The position numbers and the translations under genes were made by a program. Shown here in pieces: positions 29,649 to 34,347 of a DNA stretch of 47,785 nt; the first letter of the stretch is position 1; each line of letters starts with the position of its first letter. This DNA is from a virus (lineage: Duplodnaviria; Heunggongvirae; Uroviricota; Caudoviricetes), in the IMG/VR virus record IMGVR_UViG_2529292853_000006. One strand, given 5' to 3'. The notes beneath the pieces were generated by a model. That model worked only from the letters and a program-made list of their open reading frames with translations. It had not been told where the DNA came from and did no database searches.

Positions 29649-31652
29649 TTAACGAACCAGATGCAGGAAGTGCAGGTGTTTTTCGTACTGGTCCAGTATG
29701 TCATTAATCAGCTGTTCCTGATTCCAGCCCATTACATCATAATTTTGGCCGCCCTCTTTGAGATAGACTTCAGCGCGATAATATCGATGTTGTTCACTCT
29801 GCTGCTCATCATTATCCAGCGCAGCGAGCGCGAAGGTCGGTGAGTTATACCCGCGAAGCCTCACTTCATATATATAATTCAGCTCGTTGCCCAAATCGAC
29901 TTCAAGGCGAATACGATCCTCGGCGGCGTCACTGATGTGGCTTATCGTTCCCTGCTTGTTAAGTTCCTCCTGAACCAGCGTCATGGCGGGGTGGATAATG
30001 TCGTCCATAAAACGTTTCACAAGAGAGCGCTTCGGCAAATACGCGATATTGCGTAACCTTCTCTGCCAGGGAATTGGGTTACGTGCAGCCGTAGGAGCAA
30101 TAGTCGCCATGCTAAGGCTTTCACGCTTGGTCAAATCCCGACGCAGGGCTTTTAACAGTCCGTATATGGATATTAATAAGATAACTGAGAAGGGCAATGC
30201 ACTCGCTATCGTTACGGTTTGCAACGCACTCAGCCCCCCTGCGATCAGCAGGGCAATAGCAACAACGCCCATGAGCGATGCCCAGAAAATTCGCTGCCAG
30301 ACGGGCGTGTTTGCCACCCCACCTGATGCCAGAGTATCCACAACCATTGCCCCCGAATCAGCAGACGTTACAAAGAAGACGATGACCATCGCCATTGCAA
30401 TGAATGACAGCACGGAAGAGAACGGGAAATGCTCCAGGAAATTAAACAGGGCAAGCGCAACATCCTGCTGAACGGTATTGGCGAGGTCAGTGGCGCCCTG
30501 GTTCATGATGAGATAGATGGCGCTGTTTCCAAACACCGTCATCCACATGAGCGTAAAGCCGGCGGGAACAAACAACACGCCAGTCACGAACTCACGAATT
30601 GTCCTGCCGCGGGAAACGCGTGCAATGAACATACCTACAAACGGCGACCATGAAAGCCACCATCCCCAGTATAATAATGTCCAGCCCCCCAGCCAGTTGC
30701 TCGACTTGGGTTCATACGCGTAAAGGTTGAACGTTTTACTCACCAGTTCCGACAGATAACCACCCGTATTTTCCACAAATGACTTCAGCAGAAGCACAGT
30801 GGGACCCAGGCACAAGACCAGCGCCAGGAGCAACACCGCCAGGCCCAGATTAAGCTCAGACAGGATGCGTATTCCCTTGTCCAGGCCGGACACCACCGAA
30901 ATCGTCGCTAACCCCGTGATGACCACGATCAAAATGACCTGTACCGTTTCATTGATGGGCACGCCGAAAAGATGGTTCAAACCGGCATTCACCTGCAATA
31001 CACCGTAACCCAGCGATGTTGCAACGCCAAAGACAGTGCCTATCACGGCGAAGATATCAACCGCGTGGCCTATAGGCCCGTAAATGCGATCGCCGATAAT
31101 GGGATAGAGCGCAGAACGCAGCGTTAAAGGCAGACCGTGACGGTAACTGAAAAAGGCCAGAATCAGCGCCACGATGGCATAAATTGCCCATGCGTGCAGA
31201 CCCCAGTGGAAGAACGTCAGGCGCATGGCTTCCTTCGCTGCCGCAACGGTCTCTGGAGTGCCGACAGGTGGCGAAAGATAATGCATCACAGGTTCGGCAA
31301 CGCCAAAGAACATCAGGCCGATCCCCATCCCTGCCGAAAAAAGCATCGCGAACCAGGAGTGGTAGCTGAAATCAGGCTGCGCATGGTCTGGGCCCAGCTT
31401 TATATCACCGTAACGTGAGAGTCCAAGGAACGTGACGCTCAGTAAAATCAGGGCCACAGCAAGTATGTAGAACCAGCTGGCATTCGTGAAGATTTGTTGC
31501 TGAAGTAGTTTAAAATTTTTGTCGGCGACATCCGGGAATACGGCGGCAAAGGCGACAAGAAGGAAAATTAGCAAAGCAGATGTAAAGAATACCGCTTTGT
31601 TAATCTGGCTTGTAGACTTCTTTGGGGTTGTATCATTTTCACTCATAATCAT
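29649..31652 (-). CDS. BCCT-family transporter (BetT-like)
   Basis: 667 aa; strong similarity along the length to E. coli BetT as recalled, including the C-terminal ILDQYEKHL.F.HL motif; no betABI nearby. Confidence 0.85.
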   Translation of the reverse strand: MIMSENDTTPKKSTSQINKAVFFTSALLIFLLVAFAAVFPDVADKNFKLLQQQIFTNASWFYILAVALILLSVTFLGLSRYGDIKLGPDHAQPDFSYHSWFAMLFSAGMGIGLMFFGVAEPVMHYLSPPVGTPETVAAAKEAMRLTFFHWGLHAWAIYAIVALILAFFSYRHGLPLTLRSALYPIIGDRIYGPIGHAVDIFAVIGTVFGVATSLGYGVLQVNAGLNHLFGVPINETVQVILIVVITGLATISVVSGLDKGIRILSELNLGLAVLLLALVLCLGPTVLLLKSFVENTGGYLSELVSKTFNLYAYEPKSSNWLGGWTLLYWGWWLSWSPFVGMFIARVSRGRTIREFVTGVLFVPAGFTLMWMTVFGNSAIYLIMNQGATDLANTVQQDVALALFNFLEHFPFSSVLSFIAMAMVIVFFVTSADSGAMVVDTLASGGVANTPVWQRIFWASLMGVVAIALLIAGGLSALQTVTIASALPFSVILLISIYGLLKALRRDLTKRESLSMATIAPTAARNPIPWQRRLRNIAYLPKRSLVKRFMDDIIHPAMTLVQEELNKQGTISHISDAAEDRIRLEVDLGNELNYIYEVRLRGYNSPTFALAALDNDEQQSEQHRYYRAEVYLKEGGQNYDVMGWNQEQLINDILDQYEKHLHFLHLVR

Positions 31653-32449: not shown

Positions 32450-33526
32450 TTACCCCCTGAAGCCCGGCGGAATTTCGTTATCCGGTTCAGAAATATGATT
32501 CACACAACGCTGGTTGTTCGTGCCGCTTACCGGGAGCAACCAGGGGTTCTCAAAATTCCGGTCCGGTCCAAAAAACGTCGTCGCTCGCTGAACAAATTCC
32601 GTTCCCGTTTTCCCGGTAGCCGCCAAGTATCTTGCGTAACGCCTCACGCCATCCAGCATGGCCTCTGGTGGCACCCCCTCGCGTAATCTGGCCTTCCAGG
32701 CACTGAAAGCGGATTTCTTCGGGTTTGCCCCAGCACGCAACGGGTACTCCCGCCAGACCTGTTCGAACACATCCGGATAATCCACTCGTCCCACAGACTG
32801 CCCGGTGTTTTCCGGGACTACCCGATCGGCTTCCCGCTGAATGGCGGAATCGGCTTCGGGCTGCTGCAGTTGGTGTGATTGCTCCGGCCTTGCGGTCATC
32901 ACCTGCTGCACAGCGCCCGAATCGGCTTTCAGCGCATACGCTGAATCGGCTTCCGGTGTCGTGCCTGCTGGCTGACCAAGATTGACGGTCTGAACATCCC
33001 CTGCCTGGTTCGTGGCGTTTTTTACGCCATGGACCATAGTGTTTTGATCTTCTTGATCTGTATCTTTATCTGTATCTTTATCTGTCGTGACTCGTCGTGA
33101 CATATGCGTGACATTTCGTGACGCGCCGTGACAATCGCCATTTTGTTCCCGCTTTCTTTCCCTCTCTCGCTGCGCCCTCTTGCGCTCTGCAGGAGATTTT
33201 GCGGTTTGCGAAATATTGCCGTTGTCCTCTTTAAGCACCTGGCGTTTTTCCCATCCAGTGATTAAATCACCATCAAGTACCCGCCCCTGCATCGTCTGCA
33301 AAATTGAATCAATTACCTCTTCTGTCACGTCGAGCGCACTTGCCAAATCTTCTGTCGTGACCTCAATGTGACCTCGCGTGACATTTCGTGACGCGCTCAC
33401 CAGGAGGTGGATATACACTGCCATCACTGTTGCAATTGGCTGCCCTGACACCCTGGCAATTGTTCGCCACTTAGGGTCATTTGGCATGTCATGCCATAAT
33501 CTGAGCCAGGCGTTAGCCATACTCAC
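32450..33526 (-). CDS. replication initiation protein (lambda O-like organisation; YdaU-like C-terminal region)
   Basis: 358-aa ORF containing two iteron arrays; low-complexity DKDTDKDTD linker encoded by the repeats; position after ydaT. Confidence 0.55.
   Translation of the reverse strand: MSMANAWLRLWHDMPNDPKWRTIARVSGQPIATVMAVYIHLLVSASRNVTRGHIEVTTEDLASALDVTEEVIDSILQTMQGRVLDGDLITGWEKRQVLKEDNGNISQTAKSPAERKRAQRERERKREQNGDCHGASRNVTHMSRRVTTDKDTDKDTDQEDQNTMVHGVKNATNQAGDVQTVNLGQPAGTTPEADSAYALKADSGAVQQVMTARPEQSHQLQQPEADSAIQREADRVVPENTGQSVGRVDYPDVFEQVWREYPLRAGANPKKSAFSAWKARLREGVPPEAMLDGVRRYARYLAATGKTGTEFVQRATTFFGPDRNFENPWLLPVSGTNNQRCVNHISEPDNEIPPGFRG
33055..33133. repeat. iteron array 1 (putative replication origin) inside the O-like gene
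   Basis: Two tandem TGTATCTTTATC units, then five CGTGAC copies at 10-11 bp spacing (33086, 33096, 33107, 33117, 33127). Confidence 0.6.
33324..33392. repeat. iteron array 2 inside the O-like gene
   Basis: Four CGTGAC/TGTGAC copies at 10-11 bp spacing plus one inverted GTCACG; shares the 21-bp string GCGTGACATTTCGTGACGCGC with array 1. Confidence 0.55.
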
Positions 33527-33591: not shown

Positions 33592-34017
33592 TCAATGCAC
33601 AGCCACAATATTTCCTGCAGGGCCACCACGATTCATCTGGTTGAAACCAGCGATCGCCACTGCGACAAAATCATCAGCGTCTCTCACCAGTCGTTCCCGC
33701 GTCTCCACTAGTTCCCGAAAATAGGCTGAGCTATGACTGCGCATTCGGGCCACCAGCAGAGGTGGCATTGCTTTTTCGATAGCTGGTAACAACGCCTGAA
33801 TTTTTTTAACCGCATCAGGGGTGTCTTTCTCCACCCAGCGGAAAATTTTCTGAGTATTGCGAGCCAGGGCTTCCGGATGGCTGTCGTCATACAGTTCCGG
33901 GAACGTCATTCCCAGCTCGAAATACGCTTTGGTAATTTTCGCAGCCGGTACTTTTTCGCCGTCCGGATGCGCCCAGGCATTCATCGCCATGCGGATGTGT
34001 TCATGCTTGATTTTCAT
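33592..34017 (-). CDS. ydaT: Rac-type YdaT protein
   Basis: 141-aa ORF MKIKHEHIRMAMNAW...; matches K-12 Rac YdaT as recalled; 4-nt overlap with ydaS. Confidence 0.75.
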   Translation of the reverse strand: MKIKHEHIRMAMNAWAHPDGEKVPAAKITKAYFELGMTFPELYDDSHPEALARNTQKIFRWVEKDTPDAVKKIQALLPAIEKAMPPLLVARMRSHSSAYFRELVETRERLVRDADDFVAVAIAGFNQMNRGGPAGNIVAVH

Positions 34018-34268: not shown

Positions 34269-34347
34269 ATCACCCTCACAATGTGAACTTTGAGTACATG
34301 CTATAACAGAACTGACAGTACATTCAAGAGCGAATATCATTGAACTT
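34269..34347. promoter_or_regulatory. OR-like operator/promoter region between ydaS and racR
   Basis: Two AGTACAT sites 24 bp apart (34293, 34317) and palindrome TCACAaTGTGA (34276-34286); racR ATG has no SD. Confidence 0.45.

Follow-up and report, generated by a model that had tools for sequence, protein, structure and literature searches.

A candidate two-part replication origin within the initiator gene of a Rac-type Escherichia coli prophage

The initiator gene and its repeats

The DNA described here, referred to throughout as the window, is a stretch of 47,785 nucleotides (IMG/VR record IMGVR_UViG_2529292853_000006) that represents a Rac-type Escherichia coli prophage located at ttcA. 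The subject of this report is its replication initiator gene, the coding sequence of which carries two arrays of a short repeat that, together with an adjoining purine-rich tract, probably constitute the origin of replication. The local gene order is that of a RacR-like repressor, a YdaS-like Cro analogue, a YdaT-like gene, the initiator, a DUF977 gene, and a gene for a BCCT transporter. The features within the initiator gene are listed in Table 1.

Table 1. Features of the initiator gene (window coordinates; aa, amino acid residues)
Feature	Position	Strand	Description or basis
Replication initiator gene	32450..33520	-	open reading frame list, PHROG 3729, phage annotations
C-terminal 24 residues, DnaT-like tail	32453..32524	-	SEPDNEIPPGFRG; PDB 6aep_A, 2ru8_A, 9zbt_D
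Imperfect palindrome	33006..33036	.	13-nt arms, 5-nt loop; directly after AT-rich tract
Candidate DNA-unwinding tract	33041..33085	-	ACAGATAAAGAT units, two GATC sites; AT-rich, purine-rich on coding strand
Array 1	33086-33132	- (coding)	five direct GTCACG; aa 130-145, interdomain linker
Basic helix, aa 110-126	33143..33193	-	SPAERKRAQRERERKRE; helix in model; K114 at 33179-33181, Q117 at 33170-33172
Winged-helix domain coding region, aa 1-93	33242..33520	-
Inverted hexamer copy	33324..33329	+	GTCACG on + strand, CGTGAC on coding strand; encodes V65-T66
Array 2	33356..33392	- (coding)	four direct GTCAC(G/A) at 33387-92, 33377-82, 33367-72 (GTCACA), and 33356-61; aa 43-55

The initiator contains 356 amino acid residues when translated from the RefSeq ATG, and an in-frame GTG upstream at 33526 would extend it to 358. 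In phage records it is variously named 'DNA replication protein O', 'primosomal protein I', or 'replisome organiser', and near-identical proteins carry the NCBI name 'phage replisome organizer'. It matches PHROG 3729, 'replication initiation protein', with an E-value of 2e-257, and the 'replisome organizer' families of the same database at 4e-6 and 4e-4. With the whole protein as the query, no Pfam family was found at E ≤ 0.01. The N-terminus gave a weak score against PF09681 (16.1 bits, E 0.012, with a cutoff of 23.3), but the alignment is full length in that residues 5-123 of the protein correspond to positions 1-119 of the 121 in the profile. Indeed, when E-values up to 10 were allowed, PF09681 and a Crp-type helix-turn-helix model were the only Pfam entries to match the N-terminus, both below threshold. 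On the basis of these searches, the protein is probably an initiator of the replisome organizer type, its N-terminus weakly so. The original prediction had called the gene 'O-like', which holds as a description of function and not of homology. Kinship with the lambda O family (Pfam Phage_rep_O) was rejected given that the initiator matches no Pfam family at E ≤ 0.01.

Read on the plus strand, array 1 presents CGTGAC at 33086, 33096, 33107, 33117, and 33127, with spacings of 10, 11, 10, and 10 bp. Array 2, which is positioned ~230 bp upstream of array 1 within the gene, presents CGTGAC at 33356, 33377, and 33387 and TGTGAC at 33367, with spacings of 11, 10, and 10 bp. The repeats are direct cores of 6-7 bp that recur every 10-11 bp and have no internal symmetry. 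Both arrays contain at least three direct copies phased with the DNA helix, which is a hallmark of origins of the iteron type. The window contains 26 copies of CGTGAC, nine of which fall within the 307 bp of the arrays; in shuffled sequences there are 16 per window and ~0.1 per 307-bp span. Likewise, when the codons of the initiator were resampled synonymously, GTCACG occurred on average 0.78 times, with a maximum of five in 20,000 trials, as compared to the eight copies observed.

The original prediction had described array 1 as five CGTGAC copies at 10-11 bp intervals, array 2 as four CGTGAC/TGTGAC copies accompanied by one in the inverted orientation, and a 21-bp string as identical in both. 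All three descriptions proved to be correct, the string being GCGTGACATTTCGTGACGCGC at 33106 and 33376. The units that it had noted before array 1, TGTATCTTTATC, are also present and correspond, in another register, to the 12-mer TCTTTATCTGTA, of which the program Tandem Repeats Finder (TRF) reports 2.9 copies at 33051-33085, before array 1 on the plus strand. An Asp/Lys/Thr linker had been expected as the translation of the repeats. This is correct for the 12-mer tract (DKDTDKDTD) and incorrect for the arrays themselves, which encode CHGASRNVTHMSRRVTT in the case of array 1 and, within the folded N-terminal domain, SASRNVTRGHIEVTT in the case of array 2.

Adjoining array 1, at 33040-33079, is the minimum in GC content for the gene, 0.275, whereas the values beside array 2 range from 0.43 to 0.53. 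The ACAGATAAAGAT tract located here is translated as DKDTDKDTDQEDQ. In a first set of relatives, all 52 of those that were typed have a purine-rich tract directly past the linker array, built from units of AGATAA, AGATAC, or AGAGGA, and it is present whatever the repeat type or the GC content of the host. No such purine/AT tract accompanies array 2. The palindrome that lies beyond the tract likewise has its counterpart across the family, where a short GC-rich hairpin is enriched 40-60 nt past the last linker repeat (perfect stem of 5.7 nt versus 4.7 nt in control windows, Mann-Whitney p 2e-7). Among 80 near-identical E. coli prophage copies (L004-L083), the number of units in the 12-mer tract ranges between 1.5 and 5.5. 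The repeat positions of both arrays are unchanged in 76 of these copies, and the other four have lost one exact copy from array 1.

A model of residues 1-131 was calculated with AlphaFold2 (mean predicted local distance difference test score, pLDDT, of 81). It displays three α-helices, a loop delineated by residues 46-55, a helix-turn-helix with a β-hairpin wing formed by residues 56-87, a disordered segment from 94 to 109, and the basic helix from 110 to 126. The predicted N-terminal fold resembles that of the DnaD N-terminal domain. In terms of this model, array 2 encodes the end of the third helix and the loop at 46-55, just before the helix-turn-helix motif, and the inverted copy encodes the turn of that motif, residues 64-66.

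Constraint on the repeat DNA and its variation among relatives

The hexamers fall in all three reading frames and are translated as ASR, VT, GH, CH, and MSR. With a spacing of 10-11 nt, successive copies shift in frame and hence give rise to no peptide repeat. Codon usage was examined in 19 non-redundant relatives from many genera, with amino acid sequence identities of 55-97%. At residues with at least fourfold degeneracy, the codon entropy is 0.20 bits inside the hexamers versus 1.77 bits elsewhere (p 1e-7). The synonymous sites of the domain are otherwise saturated, and R7, L8, and R80 are each encoded by five different codons. Within array 2, by contrast with these, the codons are frozen: Val 47 is GTC in 18/18 relatives, Thr 48 is ACG in 18/18, Gly 50 is GGT in 19/19, and Val 54 is GTC in 18/18. 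The same is true in array 1 for Ser 141 (TCA, 18/18) and Val 144 (GTC, 18/18) and, in the inverted copy, for Val 65 (GTG, 15/15) and, in most cases, Thr 66 (ACA, 11/14). The third positions of the spacer residues Arg 45 and Arg 49 vary freely. This synonymous freeze inside the hexamers indicates that selection acts on the DNA of both arrays and, as judged from these codon comparisons, both are under purifying selection at the DNA level.

To place the arrays in a wider context, relatives were collected by a scan of one genome per species and by scans seeded with distant relatives, which together yielded 124 non-redundant genes. The diversity came from genome contigs and from the distant-relative seeds; a first scan of viral contigs had returned only near-identical E. 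coli copies. The first set mentioned above, that of the 52 typed relatives, is the basis for the flank, purine-tract, and array-loss (7/52) counts. A linker array, defined by at least three phased hexamer copies, is present in 87 of the 124 genes. In 72 of these 87, phased direct copies of the same hexamer also make up a run within the part that encodes the N-terminus (62 with three or more copies), and in two more the run there is inverted, for a total of 74/87. Within 214 kb of flanking DNA in the first set, no phased cluster of the cognate hexamer was observed. The inverted copy lies at the same place in many relatives.

The hexamer itself differs between lineages. Six types were observed, namely GTCACG, CGAACG, GCAACG, GTGACG, GTAACG, and GGAACG, all of which share a terminal ACG(C) and are distinguished by the three preceding bases, and the type switches in both arrays together. 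Thus in a Manatee Spring phage both arrays have changed to CGAACG, and in Ralstonia phage Hennie to GCAACG. Pseudomonas phage phita81A and Aeromonas phage pAEv1818, which share the N-terminal module at ~70% DNA identity, retain both arrays and the ATCTTTATCT element despite differing C-terminal halves. More generally, the arrays travel with the N-terminal module through the Enterobacteria, Pseudomonas, Aeromonas, Burkholderiales, and Xanthomonadales, where the neighboring genes and the C-terminal domains differ. The N-terminal domain family comprises 4,174 clusters at 50% identity (E ≤ 1e-3).

The loop at residues 46-55 varies in length across the family, and its extra residues correspond to extra repeat copies (loci L089, L119, L126, L167, and L112). 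In one Xanthomonadales group, the array is instead accommodated in an SRNVTVGH insertion between helices 2 and 3, and in L139 and L148 the N-terminal array is inverted. Those loci in which it is either inverted or relocated are L139, L148, L138, L143, and L145-L147. Because its location, length, and orientation all vary, the array is evidently maintained as DNA, at whichever site in the protein can accommodate it. From these sequences, array 2 is best read as an auxiliary group of sites for the initiator, encoded in a loop of variable length on the surface of the protein's winged-helix domain. The copies in L148 are mostly spaced by 9 nt, with a VTS/VTN peptide repeat as the result.

The columns of the protein alignment were ranked by mutual information with repeat type. 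The top two correspond to Lys 114 (z 16.5) and Gln 117 (z 13.6), and those ranked next are encoded by the arrays and are thus trivially linked. Both residues belong to the basic helix, and their codons are situated ~40 nt upstream of array 1 and outside of all repeats. Shown in Table 2 are the residues at these two positions in 86 typed non-redundant genes. The pairings are alike in both deep subfamilies of the protein (WLRLWHDMP and WFRWHHGTV), which argues for a functional link over shared descent. Arg 113 and Arg 118 are nearly invariant. We infer from this covariation a role for the basic helix in reading the repeat, in which residues 114 and 117 would touch the variable half. With regard to another hallmark of iteron-type origins, selection on the DNA and specificity for the cognate initiator, the former is found in the synonymous freeze and the latter in a repeat type that tracks residues of the initiator.

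Table 2. Repeat type and the residues at positions 114 and 117 of the initiator
Repeat type	Residues 114 / 117	Genes
GTCACG	K / Q	46/48
GCAACG	S / H, R or L	S at 114 in 12/12
GTGACG	T / Y or W	T at 114 in 6/6
CGAACG	A / W	7/9; rest S/W and A/H
GTAACG	V / Y or F	2/2
(G/A)GAACG	K / W	3/3

A proposed two-part origin and the competing explanations

We consider it probable, at roughly 0.7, that the arrays form a two-part replication origin of the Rac-type prophage within its own initiator gene, in which array 1, the purine tract, and the palindrome make up the core and array 2 is a second cluster. The original prediction had proposed that the repeats are initiator-binding sites of an origin resembling that of lambda, and the selection on the DNA, the concerted change of the two arrays, the covariation with the initiator, and the adjacent AT/purine tract lend it strong, if indirect, support. 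In the mechanism envisaged, each repeat would be bound by the initiator, with one protomer per turn and all on one face of the DNA. Within the basic helix, Lys 114 and Gln 117 would recognize the variable half of each repeat, the constant ACG half being left to the invariant arginines, and the winged-helix domain, similar to the oligomerizing N-terminal domain of DnaD, would hold the protomers together. The two clusters could then be bridged into one nucleoprotein complex, which would stress and open the adjacent purine/AT tract at 33041-33085, whereupon the DnaT-like C-terminus would bring in the helicase machinery of the host.

Several points weigh against this reading. The nine direct copies fit a single lattice of 10.40 bp to within 0.42 nt across 29 repeat intervals, but this fit is not significant, as 28% of random displacements do equally well if any period from 10.2 to 10.6 bp is allowed. 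A Rayleigh test at 10.5 bp likewise gave no significant result for the register between the arrays in the first set. In a larger set, in which the inner gap takes 28 distinct values, a peak was observed at 9.9-10.0 bp (R 0.49) with a p of ~1e-3 before correction for ~20 periods, part of which is to be expected anyway from the gain and loss of whole repeat units. The inner gap displays no periodicity at 3, 6, or 9 bp. Taken together, these data are at most suggestive of a helical phase-locking of the two arrays. The covariation at residues 114 and 117 is a correlation among related sequences and not a contact, and searches of the literature found no binding or replication experiment for any member of the family. 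Finally, the N-terminal array is absent in ~15% of the genes with a linker array (13/87; 7/52 in the first set), and array 2 is therefore accessory rather than universally essential.

The last of these points is also accommodated by a different division of labor, one in which array 1 and the tract constitute the origin and array 2 is an operator-like control site that limits initiator synthesis or re-initiation and does not promote opening. Initiator bound there, in the 5' part of its own gene, would block the transcription that arrives from the early promoter, or else a handcuffing-like pairing with array 1 would shut the origin. A regulatory accessory might well be dispensable in some lineages, as array 2 is. 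The arrays share their repeats and coevolve, which makes a single protein the likely ligand of both; the direct copies are joined by an inverted one, and the iteron plasmids F, P1, and RK2 use a second set of repeats for negative control. Array 2, however, overlaps no promoter-like site, the only matches being those at 34312 and inside array 1, which are at chance level, and it is situated 130 nt inside the coding region. Furthermore, most relatives preserve its orientation and its distance with respect to array 1, a constraint that is not expected of a simple roadblock, and a lytic phage would gain little by limiting its own origin. We thus regard a control site, which the original prediction had offered as an autoregulatory site, as unlikely. 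The identical 21-mer and the ASRNVT peptide common to both arrays suggest that a duplication took place in their history, and the original prediction had accordingly allowed for an origin that is either split or duplicated. That there are two independent origins, arisen by tandem duplication and each firing alone, is nevertheless very improbable: the AT/purine tract and the palindrome occur only after array 1, the GC content beside array 2 is the 0.43-0.53 given above, and array 2 is found in a different loop or inverted in some lineages. Since array 2 is without an unwinding tract or palindrome of its own, 'split' is the more fitting of the two terms.

It might also be asked whether the initiator is the protein that binds the repeats at all. 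Read on the plus strand, the repeat looks like a -35 hexamer, and two repeats together make up one promoter-like match, which could be taken to favor sites for a host factor or for the product of a neighboring gene (YdaT-like or DUF977). In two subfamilies, however, residues 114 and 117 of the initiator itself change along with repeat type, and the arrays move with the N-terminal module while the neighboring genes and C-terminal domains change; in addition, a host factor would not account for six repeat types. Another protein as the ligand is accordingly improbable. The ASRNVT peptide could, on its own, be taken to mean that a repeated peptide motif, or codon bias, has produced the repeats incidentally and that they have no function as DNA. 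This possibility is refuted by the use of three reading frames, by the restriction of the synonymous freeze to the hexamers, by the codon resampling, by the inverted arrays of L139 and L148, and by the switching of repeat type in both arrays together.

Known systems, possible helicase recruitment, and the surrounding DNA

The placement of an origin inside the gene for its initiator is the classical arrangement and is already known. The lambda origin lies inside gene O and contains four ITN iterons, inverted repeats of 18 bp to each of which a dimer of O binds, with a High-AT-rich region prone to unwinding downstream (PMC6022878). As in lambda, the repeats in the window are followed by an AT-rich region and a small palindrome. 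They lie in the part of the initiator gene that codes for the linker between the N-terminus, which would bind DNA, and the C-terminal domain, which would serve in recruitment, and the gene itself occupies the corresponding place in the early-right operon, downstream of cro-like and cII-like genes. The differences are several. The units here are direct, 6-7 bp in length, and repeated every 10-11 bp rather than inverted and of 18 bp, and there are two arrays rather than one. The initiator is not followed by a P-like or DnaC-like gene and terminates in a DnaT-like segment, and the two proteins have no detectable sequence relationship.

The initiator of phage SPP1, G38P, binds to oriL, which consists of direct repeats (AB boxes) and an AT-rich unwinding element within gene 38, and to a second region, oriR, elsewhere in the genome (PMC5737612). 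The window resembles SPP1 in having repeats, followed by a candidate unwinding element, in the gene for its initiator, and a second cluster of putative binding sites; the initiator is also probably of the replisome organizer type. Whereas oriR is remote, the second array here is ~230 bp away, in the same gene and in the region encoding a folded domain. SPP1 encodes both a loader and a helicase, neither of which is found beside the initiator in the prophage, and the similarity of the initiator to PF09681, the SPP1-type family, is below the Pfam threshold. Note that DnaD and DnaT are not origin-specific binders of repeats, and that the initiator is neither of these.

The iteron plasmids F, P1, RK2, and R6K have two clusters of the same direct, helix-phased iteron, to which the initiator binds, separated by rep coding sequence, with an AT-rich unwinding element beside one of them. 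Plasmid iterons are ~17-22 bp in length and lie outside of coding sequence, and the second set functions in copy-number control. In the window, unlike the plasmids, hexamers are overprinted on the codons of the initiator, and this in a phage.

Three features look new, namely a conserved layout of two arrays with the second positioned on a folded domain, the mobility of the array among loops, and the covariation of two residues with the repeat. No published description of the origin of this family was found in the literature, although such an absence is no proof that it is undescribed. The broadest formulation would be that, throughout a large family of initiators, additional binding sites for the protein are overprinted on a loop at the surface of its folded domain, with the peptide there dictated by the DNA and the array able to move or flip, and that residues 114 and 117 of the basic helix constitute a re-programmable code (K/Q for GTCACG, A/W for CGAACG, S/H for GCAACG, T/Y for GTGACG, and V/Y or V/F for GTAACG). 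We judge the odds of this formulation to be even. If the reading as a two-part origin is correct, it would assign an origin to widespread Rac-type and other temperate phages of the Proteobacteria, and it would provide an unambiguous example from nature of a folded domain whose codons also carry regulatory DNA, with a synonymous constraint that can be measured. It would also furnish a testable two-residue specificity code linking initiator and repeats, with which one could forecast whether co-resident prophages are incompatible in replication or cross-activate, and build orthogonal pairs of origins and initiators. The module is a common one, with ~4,000 protein clusters defined by its N-terminal domain and DNA matches in 2,925 of the 5,426 complete E. 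coli genomes (1,647 of which hold at least 80% of the query), yet its initiator is labeled 'hypothetical protein' in RefSeq. Isolated or induced phages with the same module include Tritos, Evi, and the vB_Eco series.

No helicase or loader gene lies beside the initiator, either in the prophage, where the DUF977 and BCCT genes come next, or in phage Tritos. In a search of the PDB, only the tail of the initiator matched entries 6aep, 2ru8, and 9zbt. The NCBIfam DnaT equivalog model scored 19.2 bits against a cutoff of 201, and its alignment is confined to residues 335-358 of the 358-residue open reading frame (333-356 in the RefSeq numbering). Identification of the protein as DnaT was rejected on account of this low whole-protein score and tail-only alignment. 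As judged by its similarity, the tail may serve as a handle for primosome or helicase-loading factors of the host. Other members of the family end differently. A relative from an Aeromonas phage has a full DnaT DNA-binding domain (PF17948, E 1.6e-16; L003 2439-2900), one from a Pseudomonas phage has another C-terminus altogether and an adjoining Toprim-DnaB primase-helicase gene (L002 730-2559), and a DnaB gene adjoins the initiator in a Ralstonia phage and in a cyanophage. These differing C-termini and neighbors suggest that one cassette, consisting of the origin and the N-terminal domain, has been combined with several solutions to helicase recruitment. Were the two-part origin confirmed, the same cassette would be seen to join a DnaT tail, a full DnaT domain, or a neighboring primase-helicase or DnaB gene.

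The initiator of Shigella Stx phage 75/02 (L168 3001-4089) has the C-terminus and the palindrome of the window gene and a purine tract of the form (GAACAG)n. Its N-terminus is unrelated and without GTCACG repeats, and a DnaC-like gene follows it. From this comparison, the recombination joint between the two genes seems to lie at the unwinding tract.

With respect to other signals, no DnaA boxes were located near the arrays, and their count in the window is at chance level. A scan for promoters and terminators likewise gave counts at chance and nothing to indicate an internal promoter at array 2. On the plus strand the repeat reads GTGACA, which matches the -35 consensus at five of six positions, and a promoter-like match at 33108-33135 (+), antisense to the gene, is built from two repeats; the count of such matches is at chance. 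A terminator-like hairpin with a run of T residues is observed at 33749-33776 (+), antisense within the YdaT-like gene, and its count is also not above chance. The position of this hairpin recalls that of the lambda oop RNA opposite cII. The BCCT-family transporter, 667 residues in length and encoded at 29649-31652 (-), is apparent cargo directly after the replication module and the DUF977 gene. Beyond the BCCT gene in one matching genome are an IS3-like element and a DUF2254 fragment.

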